Part shown: positions 1 through 40,037 of the stretch, piece after piece
Position numbering within the stretch: position 1 is the stretch's first letter
How the letters are laid out: each line of letters begins with the position of its first letter
Assembly (NCBI GenBank): GCA_004431415.1
Contig: QPMI01000537.1
Location: forward strand, 1 to 64,000
Length of the DNA stretch: 64,000 bases
Direction: 5' to 3'
DNA from: Cyanophora paradoxa CCMP329
Lineage: Eukaryota > Plantae > Glaucophyta
Notes under the pieces: generated by a model
Database searches by the model: none
What the model saw: only the letters and a program-made list of their open reading frames with translations
Told to the model about the DNA's origin: nothing
Translations under genes and position numbers: made by a program

Positions 1-15
1 GGCCGGTGCGCGCAG

Positions 16-2768
16 CCGCCGCAGCTGCTTCGATGCCCGCTGATCCTGCGATTAGGTGGCTCGACGACGCGTACACAGTCGCAAAAAGCCGGTTCGAGAT
101 TCGCCTGCGGTCCAATTTGATCCAGCTGCAGGCTCTTAATCAGGCCCCTCCGCGCGCAGGCCCACCCTTCGGCGCCCTGCACATAGTGTACCGGAACTGG
201 ACGAACGCCTCCACCGCGGAGCAGATCCGCTCCAAGCTCCTGACGGATGAGGAGGGCAGCTCGGAGGCCGCCACCGCGAGCAACGCCCGCCGGGCTGTCC
301 TCCGCGCCGCCTTCGCGCGCATCGCCGTCCACTGCCTCCCGCCGCCGGCCGCCGACGCCGTCATTCGGGATAGCCAGAGCCTTCCGATCGCCTCGGCGAC
401 GGCGGACTTCCGGCGCGAGCTGGAGGCGCTGCGGCTGGACGTGGAGGAGGACCTGCGGGCGCCGGCTCCGTCCAGCGGGCTCCCGGCCTCCCGCTGCAGC
501 GGCCCCATGGCCGCAGGCCTCCTCGAACACCTCGCGGTGCGCACCCGCCGCCGCCGCCGCCGCCGCCGCGCGCTCTCTGATTTCTCACGCGCGCGGAGCA
601 GGCCGACGCCGGCGGGGCTCTCAGCATTCCGACGGCGCTGCAGGCGGCTCGGGAGGGGGCCGCCCGCGCCGCCGTCGAGAGCGTCGCCGCACAGCACTTG
701 AAACCGCTCCCCGCCGACCGCCTGTTCGCCTCGTACGAAGCGGAGCCACAGATCCGCGCATGCTGCGAGGCCGCCGCGACAGCCCTGAGCGCGGAGGTGC
801 CTACCCCCTTCCTCCTACTCCCCTCCCCACTCCCCCCCCCCCACTCCCCCGCTCCATCCCCACCCGCTTCCCCTCCCCTGCTCGTTCCGCTCTCAGGCGC
901 CCCGGTGTCCGCAGCTCGCAGCGATTTTCGAGGGGGGTAATCTTCAGGCCGTCACACGGTACGCACGACTTTTTCCCCTCCCCCTCCCCGCTCCTCCCGC
1001 CCGCCCCCCCCTTCCCCCCCTTCCCCCCCCCCCCCATCCCCTTCCCCCCCCCTCCCCATCCCCCTCTCCGCCCCCCTGTCTCCCCCACCCCCTCCTTTCC
1101 CCACACCCCTTAACCCGACTCCCCTACTCTCCTTTCTCTTGACTATCTCCCCCCTCGTCTCCCCCCACGCCCCCCCCCCCCCCCCCGCCCCCCTTCTTCT
1201 CCCCCCCCTTCACCCTCCCCCTTCCCCCTTCAACCCCCCCCCTCCCCCTCCCTGTCCCCGTCCCCATCCCCTTCAACACCCGCTCCGCCCCACCTTCCCT
1301 TCTCATTCTGTACGGCCGCGATCGGTGCAGGCACAAATCCGAACTGGCGAAGCGGTGCGAGGCCTTCCGCAAGCAGGAGGCGGCCGCCGCCTCCCAGCGC
1401 CTTGCCGCCGTCGCCGACAAGGCGCGCCCCGTACCCCGCGTGTACATGTCCGAGGCGCGAACTATTCTCCAGCTCACATTCGCGGACAGGTCGAGAAGGA
1501 GGTCGCCGGTCTGGCGCGCTCCATCGCGCATGATCTGAGCGCCGCCTTCTTTTCGTTCGAGGCGCCCGCCGGCGGCGGCCCGCTGCGCCTCCAGTGCACC
1601 GTCCGCGTCGGCAGCGGCAAGAACCTGGCGGACCTGACTCTGCCGGCCCCGGCATCGAAGTTAGTGGACCGCATCATCAGCTGGGCAGTGTTCTACGGCA
1701 TCGAGGCGTCCACCGCAGCCACGGACAAGCAGAACAGCGTCGCCATCAGCGACGCTCTCGGCGCCAAGTACGGGGTACGCAAAGTCTAATTAAACATTAT
1801 ATAAGCCGTCTGCAGCTTCGAATTCGAATAGCTTCTCACGCCCCCTCATGATCAGGCCTTCTCCAGTCTCATCCAGACCGCCGTCGAGGCGGCGAACGAG
1901 CGGGCGACCGAGGCGGCCCGCCACGCCCTGGACAAGCTTCTAGGTGCGAGTATTAATCTTGCTCCGCGCGCATTTCTTTCCCGAATTCGGCTCACTTTCC
2001 ACAGCCGCATCGCGGGAGTCGGTGGCGAGGGCGGAGCGGGAGCTGGCCGCCCGCCCGCCGGCGGGGCGGGAGGAGCTGCGGCGGGCGCTGCAGCAGTGGC
2101 CGGGCGTCGCGTGGCCCAGCATCGAGTCTCCCCCATCCGCCGACCTCTCCGTGCACGCGGAGCGGTGCAAGCGGGCGGCCGCAAAGGCGGCGGACGACGC
2201 CCTCGACCGCATCGCGGCGGTGCACGCCGGGAAGGCGAGGGAGGCTCTGAGGCGGGCGGCGGCCGAGGTCAAGCGGCGCATCGAGCAGCAGCCGATGGCC
2301 GACTTCGATGTGGAGCGGCTGCTCCGGGAGATCGGCGGCCAGGCGGCGGCGGCGGCGGCTCCGGAGGACGCGCGGGCGGAGCTGGCGGCGGTGAAGAGAT
2401 TCGCGCAGGAGGCGCGGCGCAAGGAAGAGGAGCGGCGGGCGCAGGAGGAGGCGAGGCGGAGAGCGATGGAAGAGGCGGAGCGGCAGCGGCAGCGGCAGGC
2501 GGAGCTCCAGCGGCAGGCGGAGGCGGCCCAGAGACAGAGGGGGGAGGAGGCGGCGCGGCTCGCGATGCAGCTCGAGAATTTGAGACTCGCTGCAGCATAT
2601 GCACACAGCGGGTACGCTGTGCAGCCTAGCTACAGCAGGCCAAGCAGCAGCGCCAGCAGCTCATCCGGGTACGGGTACGGATTCCAGCCACGTGTCTTGC
2701 AGACCGGGCCGCGGGGCGGCCAGTTCTACTACACCGAGTGGGGCACGAAGGTGTACAAAAAGCGTTAG
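16..2768 (+). CDS. 3' part of a spliced guanylate-binding-protein/atlastin-like (GB1/RHD3) gene with helical/coiled-coil region and a C-terminal GPRGG..YY...GTKVY motif
   Basis: The segment 'FGALHIVYRNW...SNARRAVLRAAFARIAVHCLPPP...DFRRELEAL...CSGPMAAGLL' resembles the C-terminal half of the GBP GTPase domain. An E/R/Q/A-rich coiled coil lies at ~2370-2580 and the stop is at 2766-2768. The P-loop is not in the window; the gene begins upstream (acceptor cag ends at 15). Confidence 0.55.
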
Positions 2769-5355: not shown

Positions 5356-5540
5356 GCGCGCGCGCGGCGATCGGGCGCTGCATTCCGCTGCTGATTTCCG
5401 CATTCCCCTGGCCCGGGGCCAGTGCAGCCCGGCCCCGGCAACGCGATCAGATCTCGTTCCTTCGCGCTGAACTACGTATACGGCTAGAAGCAGAAATCTA
5501 GCTGAAGAAATGAAATAAATGAGCTGAAGAGGGGCGCGGA

Positions 5541-8475
5541 TCATGATGCGGACCCCCTCGCTTGAGAAATAATAAGCAGCACATAGATGAGCTCGAGCGG
5601 GCGCCCCCCGATCGCGATCGACGTCGGCTTCGGGTCCCCTGCAGCTGGCGCCCCGGCCCCCTCCCGAGGCGGCCGCGGCCCGCACGCGCCCCCCCGAGAG
5701 GTCGAGGCCTGAAGAACTGGGCTATGCCTCCTCCTGGGGGACCCCCCCGGCAACGTCGACCCCCGCCACGGCGATGGCGTCGCCCGCGCGCTCCGGCGCC
5801 TCCCCGGCCGCCGGCTGCGCGCGCGCGCGGCGCCATCGATATCAGTGTCGACGGCGGAGTGGAAGGCTCAAGAGGGCGCGAAAACCGCACGCGAAAATCG
5901 CACCTCGGCGACCTCGTACTTCCGCGCCGTGTGGGGCCGCAATATCGACTTGCCCCGCAGCGTCTGCGAGCCCCCGCTGGCCGGCGCCGCCGGCGCGGGC
6001 GCCCCGGGCCCCGCCTCCTCGCCGCGGAAGACGATGCTCCGGCGGCGCCCGTCCCCGTCCCCGGCCTCGCCGCCGCCCCAGTCCGCCTCGGGCACGCTGG
6101 AGAGGGAGGGTATGCTGGCCGGCCTCTGCTGCTGCGGCTGAGAGCCGCCACCGCCGCCCGCGGGCACTAGTGAGTGGAAGCCCGCCGCGCCCCCGCCGCC
6201 GCCGTTGCTGCCGCCCTCCCCGCCCCCCCTCGAGCTCGCCTCGCTCGCATCGTTCCCGCCCGAGCGGTCCGACCCGCCCTGACGAGAAAGGCTCAGATGA
6301 AGAAACAAAGGGCGGGAGGGGGGGAGGGGAAAGCGGGCAGGGGGGTACCGCGAAATTGAAGGAGTTCTGGCGGGAGCCGCCGCGCGACGTACCCCACTTG
6401 CCGGACTGCCGCATCATCTCCCGCTTCTTGTTCATCTGCGAACGAAGTGAGCCTCGAAGGAAGAGGAGGAAGGGGGGGCGGGGGCGGGGAGGGGGGGTAC
6501 GCTCGCTCGCCTGCTGAAGGACCTTGCGTGTCTCGACGACCTTTCGTCCGGTGAGAAGAAGAAGACAAAGGCACGGATTAGAATGCTAGCAACCGCGTCA
6601 GATTTACATATCGAGCCTGCACCTTCTTGATGGTGTTCATCCAGGCCCCGGCGTCCTTGCGGTCGGCGGGGGCCTCGCCCCCCTCGGGCCCCTCCGCCCC
6701 CGCCTCGCCCGCCTCCTTCGCAAAGCGCGCGTTCACCACCGGCGGGCTCGGGCGAACGTTCACCTGTGTGTGCGTGCGCGCCCCGCATCAGCGAGCCTGC
6801 AGGAGTCTAGGCGAGGCTTGGGCGGGGGTCTAGGCCCAGTTCTAGGTCGCGAGAGCGATGTGCAAAGGCCGGGGGCGGCGGCGGCCGGGGGTGGGCGGTG
6901 AGGGGCGCGGGCCTTGTAGCGGAGGTTTGCGACGGCCCAGTCGGCGGCGAGGTAGCGCTCCCAGAGCACCATCACCACCACCAGCTCCCGCCGCATGATC
7001 TGAGGGGAGGGGGGGGGGAGGGGGGGGGTGAGCGGGAGGGGAGGGAGGGAGGGAGGGGCCGAGACAGAGTGGAGGGCGCCCGGAGCGCAAAGCTGGAGCC
7101 AAGGCAAGGGAAGCTAGCTATCTATACAAGGGAAGCGGAGGGGCAAAGCAAAGCGGCGCGCCTCGAGGTTTGTGGTGATGTGCTTCCACATCTTGTGCCG
7201 GGCGATGGCGTCGTCCAGCGCGATCTCCCGCTCCTGCAGCGGGTCCTGCGTGCGGCGGGGCGGGGCGCCGCCTCTTGTCGGCCGCCCGCTGTAGGTTTCT
7301 AGCTTCTAGGATAGGTTCTAGGATCTAGGATCTATTACGGGCTGTCTTGTTTCTAGGTTCTAGGATATCCCGCTCCTGCAGCGGGTCCTGCCCCGCCGAC
7401 CTCGTCGTTAGATCCTAGTGCCGAAGCTGGGGCGGAGCTTTGATACAATCCTAAATCTGCTGGACTCCCGCTGGATTCTCGCTGGGTTCTTAGATTCTTA
7501 GGATTCTATTGGATTCTTCCTAGGTTCTCTTGCTAGGCCGGACCTGGAGCTCGTAGTGCCAGAGCTCGGCGGCCGCCTCGCCCTCACTAGGTTATCTCAC
7601 GGGCTTCTTTTATAATTACTAGCTTCCCTTAAAGAGACTATTTATAGAGCGGACCTGGAGCTCGTAGTGCCAGAGCTCGGCGGCATCCTCGACGCTGTTC
7701 TTGACGTCGGCGAAGATGGTGAAGAGGCGCTCGAGGTAGTGGCAGTTGGGCGCCGCGGGGGGGAGGATCGCCCCGCACACCTAAGGGCGAGTTGTTGGGT
7801 CAGGTCGAGTTAGTTGGGTACGATAGAGTAGATTATAATTAGGGTACGGGCGGGTCACGTCTAATTCTGGAGTAGGGTAACTAATCAGCGGGGTCCGGGG
7901 CCGGGACCAGCGAGGCGCACGCCGGGCCAGGCGCGGTCCTTCGATTAGCTATGGGCCCCCGTCCAAAAGGCTATAGGCTACATAGGATATAGATAAGCTA
8001 GATAGAACAGTTGGACCTCGAGTATTGAAGTACTAACTAACTAGTTAGTTGGTTAGTTCGTTAGTTAGTCTAGATCTTAGTCGGCGGGCCGGCCGGGCGC
8101 ACGTCGAGCCAGGCGCGGTCGAAGTCGCCGCCGAGGCCGCCGACGTCGGCGGGGCGGTCCAGCCCGTGGAAGCGCAGGATCACCTTCGAGTTCGAGGAGT
8201 CAGCGGTCAAGGCGAGATTTACGCGGCAGGGCGCAGGCTGGGCGCCGCATCACTAGAAGGCGGGGCGAAGGCAGGGCGTCTTTAACGTTGCTATCCTGTT
8301 AGGTACTTTATTCAACTAGGTTCTTTGTTCTGTCACCTTGACGCGGGCGGCGGGGGCGATCTCGTCGGTGCCGCGGAGGAGCGCCGCCTGCTGGAGCATG
8401 CGCCCGTGCCGGTTCTCCCCGCTGAACATGTCGTACCTGCCCGGGGAGAGAGTCGGAAAAGAGTAGGCGAAAATG

Positions 8476-8506
<31 letters not shown>

Positions 8507-11500
8507 ATATATATAGGTTATATAGAGAGTTCTATCTAGAGAGTTCTATCTATCTGTCTTAGATAGATAGAAAGCGAGCGAAAGAAGGGAGCGGGCGGGC
8601 GTTTAGATAGAGAGATAAGCAACAGACTGAGTTCTAAGCGATGAGATCACTCATGGTCTTCCTCTTCTGAAACTGGGGTCGGCGCGGGGGCGGGGAGGGG
8701 CGCACGGGTTGCCAAACTTGCCGCCGCCGCCGCGCATGAGGCCCTCGAGGGGGAAGAGGACGTCGTCCTGCTGCACGGCGACGACCCGCCGCAGCCGCTT
8801 GTCCACGAAGTCCCGCAGCATCAGCTCTGCGGGGGAGGAGATGAGAGGGGGGGGGGAGGGGGGTCTGTGCGAGATTCATTTGTTTGGAGCTAGATAGGTT
8901 CTTGATAAATAGATAGAGGAACGTGCTGCGCTACATTCCTTATTATAATAATGACACTTTAGGTTGGCGGGGAAGGAGGGAGGGGCGGGGCGCGCCGTTG
9001 GAGGAGGTGCGGTTGTCGCCGAGGAGGACGTTCACGGGGTTGAACTCCTGCAGCAGCCGCTCCATCTGCGCGTGCGCTCCCCGAGGGCGAATTCGAACGG
9101 GGTCCAAGGTCAGAGGGAGGAGGTCCGAGGGGCCGCGCGCGCGGGTCGGGCCGGGCCGGGCCGGGCCGGGTGCAGGCGCGAAGGAAGCTAAGAAATAAAA
9201 CCAAAGCTAAGGGCAAGGTATAAGTCCACGGAGGTCAGGAGGAGGAGGAGGAGGAGGAGGTCCGAGGGGCCGCATGTGGGCGCTAACAAGGTTAAGAAAT
9301 CAAAGCGAAGGGCAAGGGCCGTAAGATCCAAGTTCTAAATAGGATCAGATAGGACCCGAAGGGCGCACGTTCGAGCGGTCGCTCCTGCGCTTCTTCTCGA
9401 TCTGCTCCTTCTGGCTCTCCAGCCGCATCGCCCTGCGAATCGAAGGCGAATCGAAGGCGCCCGCCCAGGGTCACTCATAATCAATGACGCTCGGCGCACG
9501 TGTCTATGCTATTACGCTATTATCCTATCCTCTAATGTTATGCTATTAGGCCGCGCGCGCGCCCGCGCGCACGTGTGCTCGGTGCGGAGGAGGCGGATGA
9601 CCATCTTGGCGGACATGGCGCCGAGGAGGCCCATCCCCGCCACCGCGAGCGCGATCGCGAGCAGCCGCGCCACGATGTTCACGGGGACGATGTCCCCGTA
9701 CCCGATCGTGCACACTGCGAACGAAGCTTAAGCGTGGGAAGAGGCGCGTCGAGAAGGGGGGCCGCGGCCCGAGCCCGAGCCCCCGCGGCGAGCTCGGGCT
9801 CGGGCTCGAGCGCGCGACAAAAGCGCGCACGGGTGACGAAGGAGAACCAGAAGACGTTGGAGATGTCCTCGAAGGCCGGCGTCGAGTCCTGCGCGCGCGC
9901 GCGGGGTCAGCAGAGGGCGAGATCCGAGGTCTGAAGGCCGGGCCCTGGACCCTAGGGTGGGCAGGCGGGCGGGCGGGCGGAATACACTAGGGCAACGAAG
10001 CACTAGACCTAGATCTAGATCTCTTTGGGTGCGGGGAAGAAGCTCCGGGGCGGGCGGGCTTCAGGAAGCCTCTAAGGATTCTAAGGATTTAAAGCTTCTA
10101 GGCAATAAGATGGGCGTCCGAGTTCTTTCTTTCTTTCTCTCTTTCTTCGGGCTCTCGCCTGCTCGAGGATCTTGATCCATATGGAGACGAGGACGATGAG
10201 GAGGGAGGTGAGGATGGAGAGGAACGCCATCGGCCGCTCCATCAGCAGCAGGATGAAGAAGTTCTGATGAAGGAGGAGGCGAGGAGTGAGATGAGGAGGA
10301 GGAGGAGGGGGGGACGTCGGACCTGGTGGGTGAGGCGGCGGTAGAGGCGCATGACGCGGACGACCTTGAGGATGCGCAGGATCCGCATGATCCGCCCCAG
10401 GCCTGCAGGCAAAGGAGCGCGAGTCAGGATCTCTACAGTTCTTCTACAGATTCTTGCGGCGTTGCGAGATTTTATTTTCAGTGCGCACGCATGAGGACGG
10501 CGAACTGGAGGACTCCGACCGTCGTGCTGCGCGCGGGGCGGTTTCTGCGGGGGCGGGGGGGGGGGGGGGGGGGGTACGGGGCACGCACACGGCGGGGATG
10601 TCGGTGATGAGGGAGGGGATGTCGTACCAGTTGGCGCGGAGGAACTTGAAGACGGAGGGGTACAGCTCGCGGTCGCGGTACACGCAGCGCATGACAAGGT
10701 CCACCGCGAAGAGGCTTGTCGAGACGAAGTCGAACCTGCGCCCTCCCGGTCGGTGCGCGCGGGCGGGTAGGGAAGGGTGGAGGGGGGGGGGGAGGAGGGG
10801 GGGAAGGGGGGGGAAGAAGGGGGGGGAGGAAAGTGGAGCGCATCGTAAGAAGAAGCTCATTGGGTTCTTAGTGGACTCGTAATGGTTCGCTAGGCGACTT
10901 CGCTTGGGCCGGCTCGGTCCGGTCCCCGCGGGGCCGGGAGGGGAGGGGAGGGGTACCGCACCACATGAGGATGCGCTGCTGCTTCGGGGGGAGGGGGGAC
11001 TGCAAGGGAACGTGTCTCGGCGGAAAGGAACGGGGTACGGGTGACGGGGGGGGGAGGGGGGGGTAGAGCGCACGGCGTTGTAGAGGGGTATGATGGCGAT
11101 GATGACGGATACGAACACGAGGAGGAGGACCAGGGCCTGGCGTTGGGGGAGGCGTCAGCTCTAATTCTGAGAAGGGGGCGGGGGGGGCGGGGGTGTACCT
11201 GGCAGATCCAGGCCACGGCGTCCCAGCGGGACTGGAAGAGGGGTACCGAGCGGGCGATCTCCTCCGCCTTGGCCCGCAGCTCGGGCTCCGACTGCGCGGG
11301 CGAGCGGGGCGGGATCGATGTCAGATCAGCGCTGCCGCGTCCACAGCTAATGGGAGAATGACTCTAGTGAGAACACAAGAATGCGCACCGTGGAGACGAC
11401 GGAGGTGCGGCGGCCGCCGATGCTCGAGGAGCCGTCCGTGACCGAGTAGCCGGCGCTCGACCGCGAGTCGTCGTCGTCCCCGCGGCTCCGCCCGTAGCGC

Positions 11501-11606
11501 GAGTTGCTGCGAGGCCGCCCCCTCCGATCAGATTCTCATCGATTAGCCTCTCACTGGACTCCTATTATCGTGAGGACTCTCAGGACCGCATGCGCGTGGA
11601 CTCGGA

Positions 11607-11639
<33 letters not shown>

Positions 11640-14600
11640 GTCGAGGGGCGGCGGCCCGCCCCATTGGGCTCTTCTTAGCCTTTTCGTCGGCCCCTCTACG
11701 ATTCTGATCTGGGGCCGGGGGCTGTCTGGAGCTCGCCTGGAGCGGTCGGTCCATGTCATGGAGGAGGCGAGGGTCGAGGAGCGGCGGTCCCGGGCCACGC
11801 GCGCCGCCAGGTCCGCCTCCGCCTGCTTGCGCTGCGGAATGCACAATAAGAATCTATAAGAATAAGAATCCGATCGAATCCGATCGTAAGGATCTAGCTC
11901 TAGAGTATATAAGAATCTGACGGTAAGAGCTCTAGCTCTGCTTCCGCGGCGGGGCACATAAGAATCCGATAGTAGAATCTAATCTGATCTGATAGTAAGA
12001 ATCTAATGATAGTGAAAGCTCTAGCTCTAGCTCTAGACGCGGCGGCGCCCCCCGCCTGCTCCCGCTGCGGGAGGCGGTCGGAGGGGCGGCAGGGCGGTCG
12101 GAGGGGCGGGCGGGCGGGCGGGCGGGCGCCGACGCGTCAGCGGGGCCGGAGGCGGGGGCAGGGGCGGAGGAGACTATTAGTTAGATTGCACTATCTCATT
12201 TTAAGCTCGTTACCTTGCGGAAAGAGCGCTCGAAGAAGAAGTAGAGCTTTTATGGAGCTCTTACTATCAGATTCTCATGCAATATAGAGCTAGATAGAGC
12301 TCTAGAGCTCTTATTATCAGATTCTCATGCATTCTAGAGCTAGATAGAGCTCTAGAGCTCTTATTATCAGTTTCTTATATATAGTTACCTTGCGGAAGGA
12401 GCGCTCGAAGAAGAAGTAGACGGCGACGCCGGAGACGAGGAGGGACATGAAGAGGCCGTAGGCGATGTACAGCACCACGTTGTCGTCCATGCACGCCCCT
12501 GCGGTAGATAGATCGGAGTCGGCGAGGCCGGGCGTCAGTAGCGGGCCCAGGGAGCTGATCGGGGCTTCTGCTCGATGCCTAGGAACAGCTAGCTGGCTAG
12601 GAAGCCTTCATAGCGCACCGCGGGTCGGGGAGGTGACGCAGGGCCCGGAGGCCTCGATGATGTCGGCGTCGTCGGCGATGCCGTCGTTGTCCGAGTCCCA
12701 CGCCGAGTCCCCGTTCAGCGGGAACGCGTCGTTCGCGTCTGGTGCGCCGCGCCGCTCGTTCGTGAGGAGAGGAGGAGAGGAGGAGGGAGAGGGAGGAGGG
12801 AGCGGGGGCGGGGGCGGGGGCGGCCGTGAGCTAGCTAGCGTGCTTGCTTGTTTGATGAGAGGCGGGTTGGCTAGGCTTTGGCTTTTTCTTCTTCGAGTCC
12901 AGGGGAATGGGACTAGGCGGTGGCTGGGCAACGGGGGCTGCGGGTAGGCCAGTCTATGGTTTCTAGGCTATGGGGGAGGGGGACAGCCGTGCGCTCGCTT
13001 GCTTGTTTGGTGAGAGGCGGTCTAGGCTACGGTTTCTAAACTATAATTTCTAGCTATAGGCTATGGGGAAGGCGGGCGGTCGTTCTCGGGCGGTCGTTCT
13101 CGGGCGGGGGGGCGGGCGGGTCTAGGCTACGGTTTCTAGGCTATAGTTTCTAGGCTATCTGGAAGGCGGGCGGTCGTTCTCGGGCGGTCGTTCTCTAGGC
13201 TACGGTTTCTAAGCTATAGTTTCTAGGCTAGTTTTTTATTAATACCTGAACAAATTTATATAGTTTCTATTTTATATAGTTTCTAGGCTATCTGGAGGGC
13301 GCCCGGGCGCACCGAAGACGCGATCGTTGTCCTTGTCGAGGTCGAGGCGGTAGAGGGTGCCCCGGCCCCCCGGCACCGCCCCCGGCGCCTCCGCGCTCCC
13401 GTCCGCCTGAGGGGAGGGGTGGGGAGGCGGCGTTAGGGGGCGGGCGCAGGCGAGTTGTGAAGGAGCCCCGGCGCCGGACGCGGCCTAAAGCGTTAAGAGG
13501 CTTGAACACTTTCCGACTTAGTGCATCTTATAAGCCTCTTAGTTTTCCGGTTATTAAAGGGCACCTGTGCGAAGAGGAGTATGTCCTTGTAGAGGGCGGC
13601 GGCGAGCGGGTAGGGCGCCGCCGGCAGCGCCACGCAGTGCGCCTCGAACCAGGGGTCCTCCGGCGTCCCGGCGTACTTGATGAGGTGCAGGGCCCACGAA
13701 GTGGAGGAGGAGGAGGGGGTAGAGGAGGGTGATGGGGCCCAGTACAGGAACCCGTCTTCGGAGCAGTCGCCCAGGACTAGGGGGCCGGGCCCCTCCGTCC
13801 CGGGGGCCTCGCGCCACGTCCCGTCGACGAGGCTCCGCGTGCGCAGCGCGTAGCCCGAGCCGCCGGGGCGCGAGACGACGACGGCGATTCGCCCCCCCGA
13901 GATGGCGGCGCCGTGGAGGATCGTGAAGGGGCCGCGGGACCACTCGGCCGGGCGGACGGCGGCGCGCTCCTTGGCGGGGAAGGAGAGGAGGTGGATGACG
14001 ACGTCGTCGGCGGGGCCCTGGGGCGTCAGGAGCCAGTCCGGGTCCAGCGCCAGCGGCCGCCGCGTCTCCAGCCACATCGCCCGGCACCCGGCTGCGCTCA
14101 AGCTTGAGCTTGAGCTCAAGCTTCCGGGACGCTCTCTAAGGGCGGGCGGGACGCACCGGGGCCGATGGCGATGGAGGGGGAGAAGTAGGAGGAGGAGGAG
14201 GAGGAAGAGGAGCGGGCGGGGGGGGCCGCGGCCGCGGGGTCGCCCCCCACGAGCTCGGCCGAGCGGGTGCGGAGGTAGTAGACCCACACGGACGAGGCGT
14301 TCGTCGCCGGGTCGTGCTCCCGGTAGGTCACGTACCGCTCGCAGAAGGAGGGCTCCAGGCGGTGCACGCGCCGCTGGGACGCTGCAGGGAGCGACAGCTG
14401 CGGAGGCGGGCGTCGGCTGGGGCGGGGCGGGGCGGGGCGGGGCGGGGCGGGGCGCACGGGGACGAAGGAGAGCGTCGCCGTGTCGAACAGCTGCAGGTCG
14501 TACCTTGCGAACGAAGTGAGGCGACGCGGGGCGCGGGCTGAGAAGGGAGGGAGGGGGGGAGGAGGGGGGGGCACCAGCAGCCGGCCGCGGCGGGGGCGGA

Positions 14601-15355
14601 GCGGTCGCAGTCGACCCAGACGGCGTAGTGCGAGTCGTCGGCGTGGAGGTGCATGGGCGCCGCGCCGGCCTGGAAGAGCGCGAGCGCGTTCTCGGGGTAG
14701 ACCTGCCGGTACATATCCTCGGGCGACGTGCCCACGCCCTCGAAGATCGAGAAGAGGCTTCCCCGCAGCGAGCGAGAGAGTTCGTCCCACGAGGCGTACA
14801 CGCCCCCGAAGCTGCGGCCGGCGGCCGTCAGCCACCGGAGGCGCGCGCGGGGCCCGCAGAGCGGAGCGGCAGGCGCTGCTCGGGCGCAGGCGCACCCTTG
14901 CTGGCGAACGGCGATGGGCATTGGATCGCCGTCCTGATCCACATCCCTATAGTACACGGACTCGTTCATGAAGCGGAGGGAGAGTTCTGCGGGCGCCCGG
15001 TGGCGGTAGAGCCGTGAGGCTCAGCGCGCGCGGGGCCGGCCGGGCGGGGCGCCCTCCCGCTTCACCTTTGCGGAAAGGGGAGAGCGGGACTGATGAGATG
15101 GCTGCGGCGGACTTGATTGGGGTTGCGAGCGCCACGGGATTGTAGCGGCTCTGGCCGCGGGGGTGTCAGAGGGAGCGCTAGCGGGCTAAGCTACGAGACC
15201 AGGGTGCGCACTGCATCCAGCTGGAGGGAGCACGCGGGCAGACTTTGACCCGCGGCGCTAACTAAACAGGCGATGAGGGAGAGGCCGACGAGCAAGACCA
15301 CGTGCTTAGTGTCTGCTTCTGCCCTCCGCCGCCGCTTGCGGACGCCGGGCGCCAT
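5541..15355 (-). CDS. multi-exon 6TM voltage-gated potassium channel with N-terminal signal peptide, large ectodomain, TSP type-3-like motif and extra TM helix
   Basis: ATG 15355 MAPGVRKRRRRAEADTKHVVLLVGLSLIACLVSAAG (signal-like). DANDAFPLNGDSAWDSDNDGIADDAD at ~12660-12740. TM LYIAYGLFMSLLVSGVAVYFFF at ~12410-12475. S1 ALVLLLVFVSVIIAIIPLY, S2-S3 FDFVSTSLFAVDLVMR...NWYDIPSLITDIP, S4 GLGRIMRILRILKVVRVMRLYRRL (~10330-10400). Pore FWFSFVTLCTIGYGDIVP (~9680-9855), then S6 and a long C-terminal tail. The 3' end is uncertain (5868 or 5541). Confidence 0.8.
8477..8503 (+). repeat. (GATA)n microsatellite in intron
   Basis: Run of gata units directly visible. Confidence 0.9.
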
Positions 15356-15541
15356 CTTTGCTCAAATTCGCACGTACCCCTAGGCCACCTGACTCGGACC
15401 TTTGCCGACAGGTACCAGGCCAACCCTGCCGTGACGTGCGAAGTTGCTGGAGCCAGGCCGCTTGCTGCTAGCACAGTCGCAGCATGTGGCAAGCTCTGGG
15501 TCACAACCCTTCCGCCCTCAGGCGAACGCTCGGTCCGAGGA
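15356..15541. promoter_or_regulatory. short divergent (head-to-head) intergenic region between the channel and F-box genes
   Basis: Opposing ATGs at 15355 (-) and 15542 (+), ~190 bp apart. Confidence 0.4.
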
Positions 15542-18314
15542 ATGTCAGCGAGCAGCGAGCTTGAAGAGCTGCGGCGCGAGAACACGCGATTTCAGGAGCT
15601 CTATCTCAGCGCCGTGACTGGGAAGGCCGTCCGAATCGCAGCCGTCCAGACGGACAACATTCCGATCCATAGAAAGCGAAGCCGGAGGGAGTTCGAGGAT
15701 GGCGCGATGCCGCAAGAGAGCGAAGGCGTGATGCAGGAGCTTCGCGTCTCGCTCGCCCGCGCGCGAAATCAGCTGGCCGCGGAGAAAATCCTCCCGCAGC
15801 GAGTGTTCGCGTACGCGGTCCAGATCCCCGCGGCGCTGCGGTGCGTCGACCGTGGACCGGCTTTTCGAGACCACGTACGCGGCTGACGCCGACCACGTGC
15901 ACATGCACGCAGACCTCAGCAACAGGCGAAGGCGAGCGCTGCATCGCAGACAGACGGCACGGATGAGCCGCGCGGAGAAAGGGAAGAACTGCTCAATGAG
16001 TTGCGCGCGACGGAGCGCGCGCGCCGCGACTGCATGTGGCGGCGGACGGGCGTCTTCTGCGCGCTCGTGGCGGGAGACGAGGAAGAGCCGGCGCCGGCCG
16101 CACTGTCCGATGACGTCCTGCTGCGCGTCTTCGAGCTGATCGTGGAGGTCCGCGCCCGCGAACTCGAACCAGCCGCTCTCTCCATCGCCTGCCGCTGCCG
16201 CGCCTGAGATCGCATCCGCGATCGAACTCGCAGAGAGGGGAGGCGGCTGGGGCGCTGCTGGAGGCGCACCGATTCCTCTGCTCGGCGATGCGTGTCTCCC
16301 GCCGCTGGCGCCGCCTCGCCTCGCACCCCTGCCTGTGGTCCACGTTTCACCTCCGGTGCGCGCGCCCGCCGGGCCCGCCCGCCCTCGCGTGTCCCCGAGG
16401 CCTGCTCCCGTCTCATCGCCTTGCGCAGCGTGCACGCGCTGCAGCTGCCGTGGTCCTCCCACGCGCTCGCGGTGCTGCCGCGGTTCGCCTCCCTGTCTCA
16501 CCTGAGCCTGGACGTCGTGGTCGGGGACGGCGGCGGCCGGCGCATCAACACGCGCGTCGATGAGGAGGCCACGCGAAGCCTTGCCGCCCTCTCCGGCCCC
16601 AACGGAGACGGCACGGGGCCGCCCCCGCTCCCCAGCGTCCGCAGCCTGAACCTCCGCATCTTCACGGTGCACGCGCCCGTCCTCGCGCCTCGCGTCATTC
16701 CGCGAGCATTCTGACCAAGCGTGGCACCACCTAGACGGATAGAAGCTTTCTCGTTGTGGAACCGGTACCCGGCTTGGCGTCGGCATCGGCGCGTGGAGGC
16801 TGCCCCCATGGTCAGCAGCTTCTGCCCTGGATTCCGGCGTGTACCCAGGCGGAACTGGAGGTTGCCGTGGGCCCACGCCCCTGCGATCCAGGCACGATGG
16901 TCTTCAGCCACACCGGTTCGAACAATCCGGGCTCGGATCCCGCGCGCGCCGAAATCCGCCGCAGTGGCTCAGCTGCGCGTCGCGGACCGCTTCCCGGGGC
17001 TGCGGCGCCTCTCGCTGCCCGTGGCCGGGTACCGCGCCGGCTATGCATGCGCGCCCGCCGTCGCCGTCCGCCTTGGCGCCGCATCCAGCGGCGTGGAGCG
17101 GTGCGCGCAGGCCTTTTCGCCCCCCGCCGCCGCAGCCTCCGCCTCCGCCGACCGCCCTCTCCCGCCCGCAGGCTCGACGTGCACGTACCCCTCGGATCGG
17201 TCCACGCTCGTGACATCACGGCCTTCCGCCACGCGGTCCGCTCTAACCCCCCTCCCCCGATTCTCCCCTAGTCGTATTCACGTGTACCCCCCTGCAGTTT
17301 CCGCGGCTGCGGCACCTTGGGGGCGCCTCGGCGCGGGGAGCGCAGGGGCTCGAACAGGTCCTGGCCCTCCTGGCTCCCCGCGACGAGCCGGCGGCGGGGC
17401 CGTCGGCGCCGTCGGCGCCGGCGCCGCACGCGGAGCTGGGGACCCTCGAGCTCATCTGCGTCGGCTTCGACGAGGAGGCGTCCCGGCGGCTCCTTCGATC
17501 CTGCCTCGAGCGCGCCCGGCCCCGCGCCCTCCGCCTCACCGCCTGCGCCGCCCCCCGCCGCCTCGGCGCCTCCCTCGGCCCCTCCGTCCAGTGAGCCGCG
17601 ATGATCACGTACCCCCGGCCACCGCCCTTGACACCGGTACCCCCCTTGCAGGGCGCTCTCGCTGGGTCCGGGTACCCTCGCCCGCCTGCAGCCCGAGGAC
17701 CTCCCCTGGCTCGCCGTTGCGGTGTACCCGGACCCCCCCCCCCCACCCCCCCCGTCGACCCGACGCGTACCCCGCAGAAGGCCCGGCCTCGGTCCGCGAG
17801 CCGACCCTCGAGTTCGAACCCCTGGTACTGTGCGCGTAGCGCCCCGGCCCAGCTGGCCCCGGTGCCCAGCTTTTGATCTCATTTTGCCCGCACTAGGTAC
17901 GACCCGGGGGCGGCTCGGCGGCTCGGAGAGGCGGCGGCGGTCCTCCCCGGGCTCCGTCGGCTCGTCGTGCGGGGCACCCGCGGCGCCGGCGCCGGCGCCG
18001 GCTCCGCGCTCCTCGGCGGCGCCGCCCACCTGGCCGCCCTGCGCGCCGGCCGCGGCCTCGGCCCCCTCGAGATAAGCGAGGAGCGCGGGTTCGCGGGAGC
18101 CGGAGCTGCAGCCGCGGGCGAAGCGTGGCCCGAGCGCCCGCCGGGGGCGCCCTTCCTCGTGGCGCGTCCGCGTCCGGCGCATCCGGTCATTGATTTGGAC
18201 GCGTACGACGGCGACGGGCCTCTGCTGGGGATTCTCGACGACGCCTTTATAGAGGCCGTCGTAGATCTCGAGCCCGATGACCCGTTTATGGTGGCTCTAA
18301 ATCTAGATCTGTAG
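15542..18314 (+). CDS. spliced F-box/LRR-like protein
   Basis: F-box-like 'ALSDDVLLRVFELI...RCVSRRWRRLASHPCLWSTFHL' (~16100-16350), followed by LRR-like segments (LPRFASLSHLSLDV, LPSVRSLNLRI, FPGLRRLSLP). Exon structure is approximate. Confidence 0.65.
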
Positions 18315-19393: not shown

Positions 19394-22300
19394 TCAGGGT
19401 TTAAAGCCAAGCGGCGAAATACCAAAGATGAGAAGAGAGAGGAGGAGATCTCCGCGGTGGTACATCGCGTGTTCCCGTGCAGGACAGAGAAGCGGGCGTG
19501 GAAGGCGGAGGAGGCGGCGGTGTCGGTGGAGCGACAGGGAGCAGATGGGACAGGTTGCTGGGGGGGCGAGATGGGGAGGGTGCAGCTGAAGGGCCCGTTT
19601 CGAGAAGGGGAAGGGTGGGGGAGGGGGGGGTGCGGGGGAGGAGGCTGGGGCGAGGGCCGGGCCTCTTCGGTGGGGAGGGCGGGGCGGCGGCCGGTCTTGT
19701 GGGGGAGGCCGGTCTTGAGGTTCGGGAAGAGGCTCGGGCACAGCTGATGCGGCTGCGGGCGGCGCTCCGTCCCGCCGCTGGGCGTGACCGTGATCAGCAG
19801 CAGGGGTGGAGGAAGCTGCTGCAGCTGTTCTAGATCTGCGGGGGCGAGGTCCGGGTCCGGAATTATTGCCTCGGGCTGCACGGAATCCCGCCGACTCTTG
19901 AATTTCTCGAAGGAGGCGCGGGCGTCGCGTCCGCACTGTTGCCATGCCATCGGCTTGTGCCGCTGGTGGGTCAGGCGGGGGCACTTGTGCCGGCGGACTA
20001 TCCTGTGGACTCTGGGGCCTGGCTATAGGTGAGCTCGAGATCGGCCAGGGGGGCGTCGTGGAGGTCGGGTTGGCTGCAGGTCTGGCTATAGAGGTGTCGT
20101 TGACGACCGACGGGCGCGAGCGGGGCTGGAAGAAGGTACGGATGTCTGCTCGCGAGTGCCAGGCCGCAGGCCTAGGGGCAGTCTGCGCGCTCGGCGGAGC
20201 TCGAGGCCGGTATTGGGGTTCCGGCGCGAGCGTGACTATTTTGGGCCTGGATGGGCCTGCAATGGCTTCGTCTTGGGGGGCGCGGTCTGTCTCGCCGGTT
20301 TTGGGGGGCGACGGTGGAGCGGTACATTTTCCTTTGCGTTTGTGCTGCGCCAGGGCTTCGGGGGAGGCAGCAGCGTAGCCGCACGTGCAGCTGAGGGGGG
20401 CATCCCTCGGCAGTTCTCCCGGAGCCGGCGCAGCCACCGGTATTGCCCGGGGCGGCTCGGGCTGAGATCTAGAGGCGGTGTCCGTGGGCATCTCCGTATT
20501 CAGGGCCTGCGAGCCTAGAATCCGAGTAAGAATGAGGCCGCGCCAGGTGGCACAGTTAGACACAGTGCCCGTGAAGGGGGGCGTGTAGGCCGTGAGGTCA
20601 TGTTCCAAGGCGCGGACAAGCATTTCGGCAAAGGCGCAGACGAAAATCCCGCAGTTAAATCTGTCCTGTTGGGCCGGAATGGGGAATCGGGTGGCTGAGG
20701 GGAAGGGCCAGGTGAGAGCATTGTCGGCGCCAGTCAGGGGGCCTGGGGCTTCTCGTTCGCGCTCCATGTTGAGCCATTGAAGGAGGGGCAGGAGTTGACG
20801 GCGGGCTGCTGCTGGGCCCGGGAGATTGAATCCATCGTATAATTCAGCACGGCGAGCACGGAGGTGGAGGGCTGCAAGGATCCAGTGGCCCGGGGTGTGG
20901 ATAGGGAAGAGTAATAGGTCATAGTCAAGGACATTAATTCCGCGCCCGGTGGTGCGACGGCGCAGGCGGGCGCTGCCCGCCGGCGTTATTGTCTGGGGAA
21001 TAGCGTCATAGAAAGTATGCGGGAAAAGTAAGACGCGGCGGCGGGGGTTTGTTTCTCCGTTCGCAAGAAGGTTTAGTCGGGCGAGGTAGTAGTTAATGAC
21101 GTCGGCGTTCACCCAGGACGAGCCGTTCAGCGTGGCTAGGTCGTGGAGCGATACGGAAGCACTGCCAAACAGTGCGGCAGGGCCGCTGCGGGCTGCCGGG
21201 AGCTCTCGGACTGCGCTGTTGGGCAGAGCGCGGGTAGGGGAACGGCGTACTTGGGCCCAGGCGGCACGTAACGTGGGTGGGGACGGCGGGGCCGGCCACC
21301 CTGCATTACTGGCAGAAGTATTGGTGATGCTGTTAGCAGCGTCGGGTCCCGCGGTCGGCCTAGCTACAGGTCTAGGTCTCGGGTTCGAGCTCGGGGCGGC
21401 GTTAGGGGGCACTAGTACTGGCGTTGCGGGTATCGCTGTCGTAGGAGGGGCCGTGGCCGGCCACGGTGCTGGGGGAGCAGCGCGAGTTCGAGAGCGGCGC
21501 GACTGGCTGACTAATTTGAGGTCTGATGAGAGGGTGAGCTGGCCGTTGGGTATCCGTCGACGCTGGGCTGGGGCTGCCGCGGTCGAGGGGCTCGTGGGCT
21601 CGTTCCTCATCCTGGCTGTCATATGCATCGACCTCGCCTGTGAGGGCTCGGCAGGGCGTGAGGGTCGAGATGCATGAGTTTGGCTGCGAGTAATCCCGTG
21701 TCGGCGTTGCCAGGACTGGACTTCGCTATTGCGAGCCTTCCAGATTGCTTGAGTGTAGTCTAGGATGGTGGCCATAATGGCGTTGGCGCATTTATGCGCC
21801 GCCGGTCTACGTACATCTAAGTAAATCAGGGCGGGGATGAGGCTACGCGGGAGTAGGAGCCTGACGGTGTGGCGGGGAGAGTCGCAGGCAAGGTCGGCGA
21901 AGAGTTTGCTGCCGAGGCTTTGCCACTGATCGGGCAGGCCATACAGTGGCTGCGTGAGGTGCGGGGGAAGGGGGCCCGGCCGTTGGCGCTGATGCTCTGA
22001 CCATCCCCAGTTTGCATCGTCAGCCAGCGCAAAGGCCGGGAACAGTTGGCGCAGGAGCAGTCCGTCCTGGCGCAGGGCCGGGGGCAGCTTATAGGCTGGG
22101 TCGCCAGCTGCCGCCGCGTCGACTGCAGTTTTTAGGCGTTGAGAAGATATGGTTTCATACAATAGGTTGAATATCTTAGTTTGGGTCTCGATACGGAGGG
22201 TGCGTGTTGCTGGGCAGAGACCAAAGGCATGGTCGTGGGTTTCAGGCGTCCCGCTAACGATAGGGGGGGGCCGCGGTGCATGGCGTGCGTTTCGTGCGGC

Positions 22301-37900: not shown

Positions 37901-38246
37901 GCTCGGGGAGGGCGCGGGCGGGGCTGCACGGGCTCGCTCGGCGGCGGTGGAGGGCGTTGGCGGCGCCCCGGCGTCGTCCCTCGACTCCTCGGCTCCCGCG
38001 GCGGCGCCGCGCGGCCTCCTGCGGCGGGGCGCGCGGCGGGTTCGGGGAGGGCGCGGGCGGGGCTGCACGGGCTCGCTCGGCGGCGGTGGAGGGCGTTGGC
38101 GGCGCCCCGGCGTCGTCCCGTCGCCTCCTCGGCTCCCCGCGGCGGCGCCGCGTGGCCTCCTGCGTCGGGGCGCGCGGCGGGCTCGGGGGGGGCGCGGGCG
38201 GGGCTGCACGGGCTCGCTCGGCGGCGGTGGAGGGCGTTGGCGGCGC
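34905..38246. repeat. tandem array of 24 extremely GC-rich units of ~139-140 bp, inside the TSD-bounded insertion
   Basis: Period is 140 (ggcctcctgcgtcgggg at 36061 and 36201), with 24 'tgcacgg' anchors. The leftmost unit is the most diverged, and the array ends exactly at the right TSD. Confidence 0.95.
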
Positions 38247-38281: not shown

Positions 38282-40003
38282 ATGGCGGCGCTCTCGGCGG
38301 TGACCGACACCCACGAGCTCTGCCTGTTCGAGGGGCCCTACGGCCCCGCGCGCCTCGCGGTCCTCCGCACGGACGCGGGCCCCGGCGTCTGCGTGGCCGA
38401 GCTGGCCCGCCTCGTCGGCTTCGCCGGCGACAACGCGCGGTTCGCTGCGGAGTACGGGGTCCCCGTCCGGCCGCTCGCCGACTGGAACGCCGTGCTCCTC
38501 CTCGAATGCCTCGGGGCCGTCGCCCGCGGCTTCTGCAACGCCCAGGAGCGCCCGCCGCACGTCCTCGCGCTCCGCTACGTCGAGGAGGTGGTGAGCGGCG
38601 CGTGGGAGCGCTCGGACGACGCGCGCATGCACCGGGCGGCGGCGAGCCTCTTCGCGGGCCTCGAGCGGCGGCGGCAGGCCCGCCTCGAGCGGCTCGAGAT
38701 GGGCGTCCTCTGGGCCGCGGGCGCGCGGTTCCTCGCCGTGCGCGCGCGCCGCGTCGAGACGCCGGAGCTCCAGTGGTGGGTGCCCCTCGCGAGCGTCGCC
38801 CAGGCCGTCTACGGCGACTCGCGCTCCACGAACTGCGTCCGGATGGAGATCATGAGGCGCTGCCCCGACCTCGCGGTGGGCGGGCCGCACCGCTTCGAGG
38901 CGAGCACACGGACGGTGGGGCGGGAGCGGCTCGCCCTCCTCACCCGCACCCTCGTCTACTACGGCGGTCTCGGCGCCGACATCGCCGCCAACGGCTCGGC
39001 GCGCCGCTGGGCCTTCCTCTCGACACTCGGCGTCGAGAGGCTGCTCGCGGGGCTGCCGGACCGCGACGGGGCGCGCGCCGCCGCCGAGTTCAAGCGCGCC
39101 CGCCTCCTTTTCGAGGGGGCCGACCCCGCGTCGCTCGAGGGGGCCCCCTCGCTCCCGCTCGCCCCGCCCCGCCGCATCTGCCTCTTCGGGCGCAAGTCCT
39201 GGCTCACGGTGAGCGACGGGAGGCCCGCGCGCGCGCGCGAGGCGGCGGGCGCTCACCTGAGCGGCGCGCGCGCAGGACACGGAGATCGCGAACGTGATGA
39301 CGCTCCAGCTGCTTCGGGCCGGCGCGGGGCGCCGGGTGGTGGCGCTGTACCCCATGCACGTCGAGATCTTCGGCTCCGTCCTCCGCCGCTACGCGCGGCT
39401 CGACGAAGCGAAGCGCGAGCGCCGACCTCTCGGGGCCGCCGAGCGGGGCGCCTGCGTCCTGTGCCCCCTGAGCCTCGGAAACTTGCGGCGCGGGGCGGAG
39501 CGTACCCCGGGATGGTCCGCGGGGGGCCACTGGTGCCTCCTCGCCGTCGACGGGGCCTCGAAGCTCGTCCGCTGGTTCGACTCGCTCGGCGGCGCGCCGG
39601 AGACGGGCCTGGAGCGCGCGGCCAAGGCCGCCTTCCCGCGGGGGGCCCCTTTGTCAGCGAGACGCGGGGCCGCCTCCAGGTCGGGGACGGGTACCAGTGC
39701 GGGCCGTGGACGCTCTGGTTCGCCGAGGCGCTCACGATGGAGGTGCTGACTTCGTTCCCGTGGTCGGACGAGATCGACAGCGGCTCCCTGGCCTACGTGC
39801 GCGCGGGTGAGCCGGTGTCGGCGGCGATCGCGGCGGAGAACGGGCGGTTCATCACGGAGAAGCGCGAGGCGTACCGCTCGCTGCTCGAGGGCGGCGTCGT
39901 GGACCAGGCCGTGGCGCTCTTCGACGAGGATTCGCTGCCGGACGCCGAGCGCGTCGTCCTCCCGCCCACCGGCGAGAGGGCGGCCCGAAAGGGCAGCAAG
40001 CCC

Positions 40004-40037
<34 letters not shown>

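Follow-up and report, generated by a model that had tools for sequence, protein, structure and literature searches.

A Cyanophora paradoxa gene encodes a predicted beta-propeller ectodomain, an aspartate-rich stalk and an extra membrane helix in one chain with a putative voltage-gated K+ channel

The window analysed here is a 64,000-nucleotide stretch of the Cyanophora paradoxa CCMP329 genome (GCA_004431415.1, contig QPMI01000537.1, positions 1 to 64,000, forward strand). On its minus strand lies a single gene whose reading frame, from the ATG at 15355 to the stop codon at 5724-5722, contains no internal stop (Table 1). The intron donors were GT in 27 of 33 cases and GC in the other 6, and all 33 acceptors were AG. 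GC3 was 0.71-0.75 in the first three exons and 0.80-1.0 from exon 4 to exon 34. The first-pass annotation had placed the feature between 5541 and 15355; its end point, 5541, falls within the 3' UTR.

Table 1. Position of the gene and its predicted parts in the window.
Feature	Residues	Positions	Strand	Remarks
Whole coding span	1-1376	5722..15355	-	34 exons, 1376 aa
Exons 1-6		15355-15212, 15150-15066, 14986-14896, 14811-14575, 14503-14458, 14397-14157	-	
Exons 7-12		14091-13565, 13406-13313, 12738-12619, 12498-12389, 11831-11737, 11506-11389	-	
Exons 13-18		11291-11199, 11136-11074, 10999-10962, 10735-10589, 10526-10489, 10402-10323	-	
Exons 19-24		10263-10159, 9888-9831, 9714-9573, 9432-9369, 9065-8996, 8826-8706	-	
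Exons 25-30		8436-8337, 8183-8103, 7780-7655, 7245-7162, 6999-6913, 6763-6623	-	
Exons 31-34		6540-6511, 6435-6349, 6278-5904, 5814-5722	-	
Likely signal peptide or signal anchor	1-36	15248..15355	-	Hydropathy; contig 5' end 15371
Predicted seven-bladed beta-propeller	42-480	13338..15232	-	Fold prediction; exons 1-8
Stalk	481-531	12491..13337	-	Two Asp loops; cysteine pair C522/C531
Extra transmembrane helix S0	~536-558	12410..12478	-	Hydropathy
S0-S1 linker, presumably cytosolic	559-660	11220..12409	-	Ser/Arg-rich
Voltage-sensor domain S1-S4	661-788	10326..11219	-	D703, F710, D713, D739
Pore domain S5-P-S6	800-888	9581..10233	-	TIGYGD filter at 9709-9692
Conserved C-terminal domain, presumably cytosolic	889-1140 (~250 aa)	6749..9580	-	
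Low-complexity tail	1141-1376	5722..6748	-	Basic stretch near 1172-1192
3' UTR, to contig limit		5449..5721	-	Contigs of runs X1, X2, X5 end at ~5449-5454

The gene model was compared with assembled contigs from two public studies. Spliced contigs of 3712, 3717 and 3710 nt (runs X1, X2 and X3 of study P1) extended from the 5' end, at 15371, through the pore to exon 33 and agreed with the model within a few bases. Study P2 contributed further splice joints (run X5) and a contig of 2397 nt (run X7), which by arithmetic reaches 89 nt into exon 7. At least 24 of the 33 introns were seen as splice joints, and the other 9 were placed by record positions. The evidence consists of assembled contigs rather than single molecules, and 13-55 nt within exon 33 are unbridged. 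The joints leading from the S0 exon into the linker (12389/11831, 11389/11291 and 11198/11135) were present in the public contigs, and the in-frame exon junctions proposed earlier are real. None of the runs is recorded as RNA; since X1-X3 and X5-X8 skip GT/GC-AG introns covered by run X12, they were regarded as cDNA, and none of the 10 listed GT/GC-AG joints was present in X12. An alternative acceptor for exon 17 at 10544 was ruled out by the length of the spliced contigs. The ectodomain and the channel are encoded by one gene, and the contigs unite both exon sets in runs of the two studies, rather than assigning them to separate genes. The EukProt annotation divides this gene into two proteins, g17612 (541 aa) and g17611 (333 aa). 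The public 541-aa model lacks exon 9 and ends on an intronic copy of exon 10; this duplicate of the exon 10 end, including its donor site, lies at 12245-12209.

The encoded protein begins with a basic stretch followed by a hydrophobic core at residues 19-31; by hydropathy, 9 of 12 alignment rows have a hydrophobic stretch towards the N-terminus. In P0010 this stretch lies at residues 84-96, which suggests an uncleaved anchor in that protein. The following region (residues 42-480) carries two N-glycosylation sequons and the conserved cysteines C42, C220, C284 and C434. What had been described as beta-rich sequence is a predicted beta-propeller according to AlphaFold2 (15-row alignment; pLDDT 80.5, pTM 0.79) and fold comparison, the seven blades being counted by eye from the predicted fold. 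The folded sequence was P0001, which lacks exon 9 and hence the stalk; its single-sequence prediction reached a pLDDT of 36.3. The best match in the fold search had a Z score of 20.3 (rmsd 4.3, 314 aligned), and the scores ranged from 20.3 to 17.2 across the best 50 rows, with no propeller family standing out. Among the top matches were a lectin as well as carbohydrate lyases (5c9o, Z 20.0; 3c5m, Z 18.9; 7esk and 5mul). The matches shared 6-14% identity with the ectodomain, and unrelated propellers tied. Among the fold matches listed, DPP6 and DPP10 were absent and DPP8 stood at rank 46. In the Atlas, the ectodomain retrieved bacterial clusters without names (best score 0.91) and a single PD40 lead (0.87). 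The PDB sequence search with P0015 gave nothing significant, and no Pfam family marked the ectodomain. The propeller presumably faces the outside or the lumen.

The Asp motif reported in the first-pass annotation is present in two copies, as DxDxDxxxDxxD loops at residues 481-492 (spanning exons 8/9) and 503-514; when the protein was shuffled 2000 times, only one shuffle contained even a single copy. Loop 2 matched DxDxDGxxDxxD exactly in 11 of 13 rows. In loop 1, each of the five sites was occupied by D or N in every row (13/13); all five were D in 6 rows, and 4 rows had the Gly. The Pfam TSP3 cut-off was not reached (TSP3_bac, 7.0 bits versus 25, in one of eight proteins), and the NCBIfam model throspo3_MtsC matched weakly in 2 of 12 proteins (E 0.015 and 0.038). 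In thrombospondin type 3 repeats, DxDxDGxxDxxD serves as the calcium core motif (available text of PMC13339868), and by this motif the loops of the present protein probably bind Ca2+. The cysteines C434, C522 and C531 were present in all 12 rows. The hydropathy of S0 ranged from 1.56 to 2.79 in 12 of 12 rows. Its outer end carries L-Y-x-x-aromatic seven residues past C531, kept in 12 of 13 rows with fixed spacing, and the rest of the helix is poorly conserved (4-10 of 24-27 residues identical). Counted in windows of 20 and 15 residues, K and R were more numerous after S0 than before it in 11 of 12 rows and equal in the remaining one. In comparison with the five non-Cyanophora full-length rows, the identity of the model was 47-67% in the stalk, 19-26% in the propeller, 32-49% in the sensor and 30-43% in the pore; judged by alignment, the stalk is the most conserved part of the protein. 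S0 would pack against S1-S4. The S0-S1 linker is 17-388 aa long in the relatives, the shortest being that of P0003 (17 aa).

The channel core shows the hallmarks of a voltage sensor: regularly spaced basic residues in S4, acidic counter-charges in S2/S3 and the S2 Phe. Its S4 has eight basic residues, one at every third position from R763 to R784. It also carries the K+ signature T-x-x-T-x-G-Y-G-D, with T843, T846 and G848-D851, and its S6 lacks the Pro-x-Pro motif of Shaker-type Kv channels. GYGD was found in all nine rows extending to the pore. Acidic residues at 703, 713 and 739 and basic residues at 775, 778 and 781 were present in 10 of 10 channel rows, and S4 with its counter-charges was intact in 8 of these. 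In P0010 the first half of S4 is absent, and in P0006 three S4 arginines are missing, so that, judging from these losses, not all family members need be voltage-gated. In Pfam, P0002 scored 42.7 bits for Ion_trans (cut-off 25) and 53.7 bits for Ion_trans_2 (cut-off 22.5). Both families were above cut-off in 8 of 15 relatives; P0005, whose chain is cut off in the pore, fell below. Among the solved chains listed, the best matches were Kv1.3, Kv1.2/2.1 and Shaker for P0002 (E 5.5e-12) and Kv4.2/4.3 for the family profile (E 3.2e-21). The product is very probably a voltage-dependent K+ channel, for which tetramer assembly, K+ selectivity and voltage gating would be expected. The layout proposed at the outset (signal-like start, large ectodomain, TSP3-like motif, extra transmembrane helix and six-helix K+ channel) is supported, the signal by hydropathy only.

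The domain that follows S6, which was missing from the first-pass description, was present in 7 of the 9 fused relatives. It matched no known family in Pfam scans or in the PDB sequence profile search, where one unrelated sequence at E 2 was returned and nothing was significant. At the sequence level, neither RCK1/RCK2 (full-length relatives and C-terminal profile) nor a cyclic-nucleotide-binding domain, as in EAG, HCN, CNG and plant Shaker channels, was detected in Pfam and profile searches. A weak lead in the Atlas to an EF-hand/GPHH domain, as at the C-terminus of Cav-Nav channels (0.79-0.87, all below 0.9), had no Pfam or PDB sequence support. The basic stretch of the tail (~1172-1192) was shared with P0003 alone.

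The fusion was also sought in other organisms. Nine of the 15 other HMMER hits carried the same ectodomain and channel in one chain, as independent records: four Cyanophora paralogues (counted in the protein library), one pedinophyte green alga and four further records. Two of the nine were complete transcriptome ORFs. All five Cyanophora copies, which are divergent and form one clade (97/98), retain the fusion, as do distant rows; the channel-domain tree was unresolved, with 0 of 7 inner branches starred. The chains of P0011 and P0015 stop shortly after S0, and four cluster mates of P0015 are also short entries (558-570 aa). P0009 was 92% identical to P0008 over 560 aa and then continued into unrelated TPR repeats; it was set aside as a likely assembly chimera joined to a TPR protein. 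P0012, an insect repeat protein judged spurious, and the fragments P0014 and P0017 were also set aside. P0004 starts with a peptidase M13 piece that probably reflects a join in the gene model. Of 7998 candidates, only P0007 was retrieved when alignment A1 was used in a word-based search. Locus scans, a method that finds close relatives only, returned no relatives for P0018 and P0016 in metagenome contigs or for P0007 in viral and prokaryote genome contigs. The relatives are annotated merely as 'voltage-gated potassium channel' or are unlabelled. No published description of this architecture was found in the literature searched, outside which most subscription journals lie.

We propose, at roughly even odds (about 0.5), that the gene encodes a voltage-gated K+ channel to which a single-pass accessory subunit is fused, operating in the manner of Kv4-DPP6 or Slo1-gamma1 and tuned from outside via a Ca2+-loaded stalk and S0. 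The outer beta-propeller would be seated on a likely Ca2+-bound, disulfide-tied stalk running directly into S0. This helix would lie against the voltage sensor, and occupancy of the stalk or propeller would cause it to shift gating. Ca2+ would be the first candidate for the outside cue and a propeller ligand the second. We consider it somewhat probable that S0 shapes gating, while an acute effect of the outside cue on gating appears slightly short of an even bet. More tentatively, the relatives may form an overlooked old family of receptor-like K+ channels of algae and further protists. The propeller and the thrombospondin-type Ca2+ stalk would then sense external Ca2+ or a ligand, gating the Kv pore via S0, so that each channel would be under outside control through a receptor domain of its own; a new cytosolic regulatory domain would come in addition.

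Alternatively, the outer part could be a scaffold rather than a sensor: the propeller, with a stalk that is filled with Ca2+ at all times, would help in folding, export, assembly or attachment to a surface structure or partner, while voltage and the cytosolic domain alone gate the pore. In the available portions of PMC10950684 and PMC9409431, the DPP6 ectodomain can be deleted with modulation retained and serves trafficking, being required for ER exit and stability; because it is dispensable for modulation, a large ectodomain need not sense anything. The propeller is moreover the least conserved outer part, many propellers match it about equally with no evident ligand site, the conserved C-terminal domain could be the real regulator, and a constant structural Ca2+ site would account for the strong conservation of the stalk just as well. 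Nevertheless, the stalk and the outer S0 end exceed the pore in conservation with a fixed spacing, which is more than a tether seems to require, and the fusion has been kept in the Cyanophora copies and distant rows; we regard the scaffold as rather unlikely. A receptor channel, in which a small molecule, glycan or protein bound to the propeller is needed for pore opening and voltage is secondary, is improbable. Its layout would resemble that of a type I receptor, a lectin and carbohydrate lyases are among the top fold matches, the five divergent Cyanophora copies in one clade recall receptor families, and S4 is weakened in two members. However, these fold matches tie with unrelated propellers at low identity, a shared fold shows no function, and S4 with its counter-charges is intact in most channel rows.

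The outer part might also act as a separate accessory subunit, released by cleavage of the precursor or made as a short ectodomain-S0 form, as the variable, basic linker, the short entries and the copied exon 10 end with its donor could suggest. Against this, the linker of P0003 has a mere 17 aa, the short entries may be gene calls halted at an intron, and the joints listed represent the long form only, the copied donor being unused, although contigs drop rare forms; this option seems highly improbable. The least credible view, that two or three adjacent genes exist as annotated and the fusion is a reading artefact, has the EukProt division in its favour, but spliced joints from both studies hold the parts together and are lacking in X12, which covers the introns, the 541-aa model skips exon 9 and stops on the intronic copy, and nine other records are fused, including the two complete transcriptome ORFs.

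If the accessory-subunit reading applies, a whole accessory module is part of the pore subunit, an arrangement retained in a glaucophyte, a green alga and several further lineages. With such a protein, the control of a voltage sensor by an outer domain and one helix could be studied in a natural single chain. The protein would also be a candidate algal sensor of external Ca2+ or ligands, and it brings a conserved, presumably cytosolic domain outside known families. The split public model, the lack of a Pfam mark on the ectodomain or C-terminal domain and the generic labels may explain how the family could be missed.

To our knowledge, known K+ channels begin in the cytosol, BK having only a short outer N-terminus, and we know of large K+ channel ectodomains only as separate subunits, e.g., DPP6 and LRRC26. 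In polycystin-1, too, a single chain joins a large ectodomain to additional helices and a six-helix unit resembling a channel; in contrast to the protein described here, it has a total of eleven helices, its ectodomain folds are different, it lacks a K+ filter, and it is not known to form a homotetrameric K+ channel. Shaker-type Kv1-Kv4 channels share the S1-S6 core, S4 arginines, S2/S3 counter-charges and GYGD filter. They own a cytosolic N-terminal T1 (BTB) domain, whereas no BTB was detected here in Pfam scans and S1 is preceded by the signal-like segment, propeller, stalk, S0 and variable linker; the C-terminal domain differs as well. The two DxDxDGxxDxxD-type loops are common to thrombospondin type 3 repeats (available text of PMC13339868), but here there is one pair, below the Pfam cut-off, between propeller and membrane helix. 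The likeness to BK/Slo1 drawn in the first-pass annotation goes no further than the presence of S0 before S1 (available portion of PMC10950684). Unlike BK, approximately 490 residues presumably lie outside before S0 and there is no RCK1/RCK2 match, and Slo chains were absent from the best 60 solved-structure matches listed in the P0002 and family-profile searches. DPP6 and gamma1 are described in the accessible parts of PMC10950684 and PMC9409431 as single-pass subunits with large ectodomains and a helix on the voltage sensor. In the former source, the helix of gamma1 (LRRC26) binds the voltage sensor, with an activation shift of ~-140 mV; like the outer part here, gamma1 is a single-pass part with a large ectodomain, but that ectodomain is built of leucine-rich repeats, encoded by its own gene and devoid of an Asp-loop stalk. 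In Kv4-DPP6/DPP10, as proposed here, a propeller ectodomain is carried on one helix beside a Kv voltage sensor (same sources, available portions). DPP6 is, however, a separate chain with an eight-bladed propeller together with an alpha/beta hydrolase domain C-terminal to its helix, whereas the protein described here has seven predicted blades, no hydrolase family in Pfam scans, and a propeller that lies N-terminal to the helix and is fused to the pore subunit.

The gene was read from the window as 34 exons on the minus strand, from an ATG at 15355 to a stop at 5724-5722, encoding 1376 aa with no internal stop codons; its donors comprised 27 GT and six GC sites. Single contigs of 3710-3717 nt from each of three runs of one study (X1, X2 and X3) spanned the 5' UTR, S0 and the pore up to the start of exon 33. 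The record positions of the contigs agreed with the model to a few bases, reflecting splice-site ambiguity. The S0 exon lay at record 2007-2115 of X2, where exon 1 started at record 3558, and the X3 positions were checked likewise. In a second study, joints (splice junctions seen in public contigs) from exon 7 to exon 15 were present in X5, a 2397-nt contig of X7 covered the stretch from exon 32 into exon 7, of which by arithmetic it took in 89 nt, and an X6 contig ended within exon 12. At least 24 of the 33 introns had a joint among those listed, and the remaining nine were set by record-position arithmetic. The 10 splice joints listed for the gene were all absent from the intron-covering run X12. 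The joint-bearing runs were taken as RNA by guess, and the contigs are assemblies rather than single molecules. The first-pass annotation had placed the ectodomain and channel exons in one gene, naming separate transcripts as the contrary finding; the contigs and second-study joints connect the two parts, and a split into separate genes is very improbable. As 13-55 nt inside exon 33 were unbridged by contigs, the last 150 aa depend on an exon whose frame stays open. A second transcript (contigs of 2512-2542 nt) starts 20-50 bp above the 5' end of the gene, from window position ~15391 upward, beside a plus-strand frame (15266-15883) whose scanned part matched nothing in Pfam. The two transcripts likely form a head-to-head pair, and this proximity leaves little space for extra upstream exons.

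The exon searches retrieved two public Cyanophora paradoxa models from EukProt. P0001 (541 aa, g17612) lacks exon 9 and terminates on a duplicate of the exon 10 end that lies within an intron, while P0002 (333 aa, g17611) starts in the linker, contains two incorrect segments and breaks off after exon 22; these errors hid the architecture in the public record. The copies in the gene's introns consist of 24-37 nt of a neighbouring exon end with its splice site. The exon 10 copy misled the public gene model, and none of the joints listed used any copy.

Intronic exon copies and other features of the window
Feature	Position	Strand	Remarks
Copy of exon 10 end	12245-12209	minus	includes splice site
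Copy of exon 26 end	7938-7914	minus	weaker; includes splice site
Copy of exon 27 end	7573-7539	minus	includes splice site
Copy of exon 28 start	7391-7368	minus	includes splice site
Tandem array	34908-38246		139-bp unit, ~24 copies, 96% matches, very GC-rich
Coding-like stretches	38282-41065	plus	adjoin the array
WD40-repeat exon	43575-43718	plus	
ALG9-like mannosyltransferase gene	55678-57781	minus	E 1.7e-16

The coding-like stretches weakly resembled Ulp1 protease (E 0.004) and an integrase SAM-like domain (E 0.013), each below cut-off, and are possibly a tyrosine-recombinase mobile element. Two near-identical short plus-strand stretches (19466-19531 and 30586-30651), ~11 kb apart with few coding-like segments around them, are probably a dispersed repeat.

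The beta-rich ectodomain noticed earlier was resolved by AlphaFold2 (15 rows; pLDDT 80.5, pTM 0.79) into a predicted propeller in which we counted seven blades of four strands each; strand 54-60 closes the last one. The fold matches listed were beta-propellers (Sec12, Z 20.3; S9 peptidase, 20.1; PLL lectin, 20.0), with Z falling to 17.2 at rank 50 and identities of 4-14%. As a prediction the fold is secure; function does not follow from it, and the propeller matched no family in Pfam or NCBIfam. The last blade leads directly into two Asp loops, followed by a pair of cysteines. In 11 of 13 rows the second loop fitted DxDxDGxxDxxD exactly, and in every row (13/13) the five sites of the first were each occupied by D or N. 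The loop motif is described in part of PMC13339868 as the calcium core of thrombospondin type 3 repeats; the TSP3-like motif noted earlier is present in the conserved loops, though the stalk fell below the Pfam cut-off. No other part of the protein was as conserved as the stalk (47-67% versus 30-43% for the pore). S0 starts seven residues past the second cysteine; its opening motif, L-Y-x-x-aromatic, was present in 12 of 13 rows, and the remainder of the helix is variable. Since S0 is followed by basic residues, and in channels of this class the chain enters S1 from the cytosolic side, we infer from the sequence that the propeller lies on the outer or lumenal side. The N-terminal segment may be a cleaved signal peptide or an uncleaved anchor.

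The 34-exon model retained the previously noted S1-S6 with TIGYGD filter and basic S4 (eight basic positions), along with S2/S3 counter-charges; the nearest solved chains were, weakly, Kv1 and Kv4. Residues 897-1143 scored 121.6 bits against a profile from seven relatives, the model excluded (best of 200 shuffles, 0.7). Sequence searches gave this C-terminal domain no significant Pfam or PDB match, and its EF-hand leads were sub-threshold.

A HMMER search with P0001 over 1.84 billion representatives gave 16 matches, including P0001 itself. The fusion, which the first-pass annotation proposed to look for in protist transcriptomes, recurred: nine of the 15 others carried ectodomain, stalk, S0 and channel as one chain: P0003-P0006 (Cyanophora paradoxa), P0013 (Pedinophyceae sp. 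YPF-701), P0008 and P0010 (complete transcriptome ORFs, EukProt) and P0007 and P0016 (ENA contigs). Seven of these nine had the C-terminal domain, P0005 and P0006 being truncated; the other six matches comprised two ending after S0, two fragments, one likely chimera and one spurious match. All five Cyanophora ectodomains formed one clade (support 97/98) in a 12-row tree omitting P0009, P0012, P0014 and P0017, indicating that the family expanded within that genome itself. In P0010 the first half of S4 is missing and the N-terminal hydrophobic stretch occupies 84-96, and P0006 lacks three S4 arginines; some members may be weakly voltage-dependent.

In single-pass partners with large ectodomains, the helix acts on the voltage sensor: DPP6 contacts S1 and S2 of Kv4, and gamma1 contacts S0, S2 and S3 of Slo1 (passages of PMC10950684 and PMC9409431). 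By analogy, this family would carry such a partner built in. Because the stalk and outer S0 are tightly conserved and the inner linker is free, a rigid path could run from the outside through stalk and outer S0 to the voltage sensor. The simplest input to this putative sensor would be Ca2+ occupying the Asp loops. Type 3 repeats hold several Ca2+ sites (part of PMC2289535), and the title of a work cited there names a Ca2+-dependent conformational change. We give a probability of about 0.5 to the reading that the fused accessory part tunes the channel from outside via stalk and S0, with Ca2+ as simplest input. The main rival, a purely structural or trafficking role for the outer part, is possible, and the ectodomain of DPP6 is itself unnecessary for modulation. 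Strict ligand gating appears unlikely, and a cleaved or separate subunit more unlikely still.

A literature search, mostly of open journals, found no description of the architecture; PMC3604715 has a general passage on S4, and mention in some genome survey table is possible. By its sequence, the product belongs to the 6TM K+ channel superfamily. It lacks the T1 that defines Shaker, the RCK that defines BK and the defining features of cyclic-nucleotide channels and DPP6; outside these subfamilies, it would, by analogy, work like a Kv channel with a fused accessory subunit.
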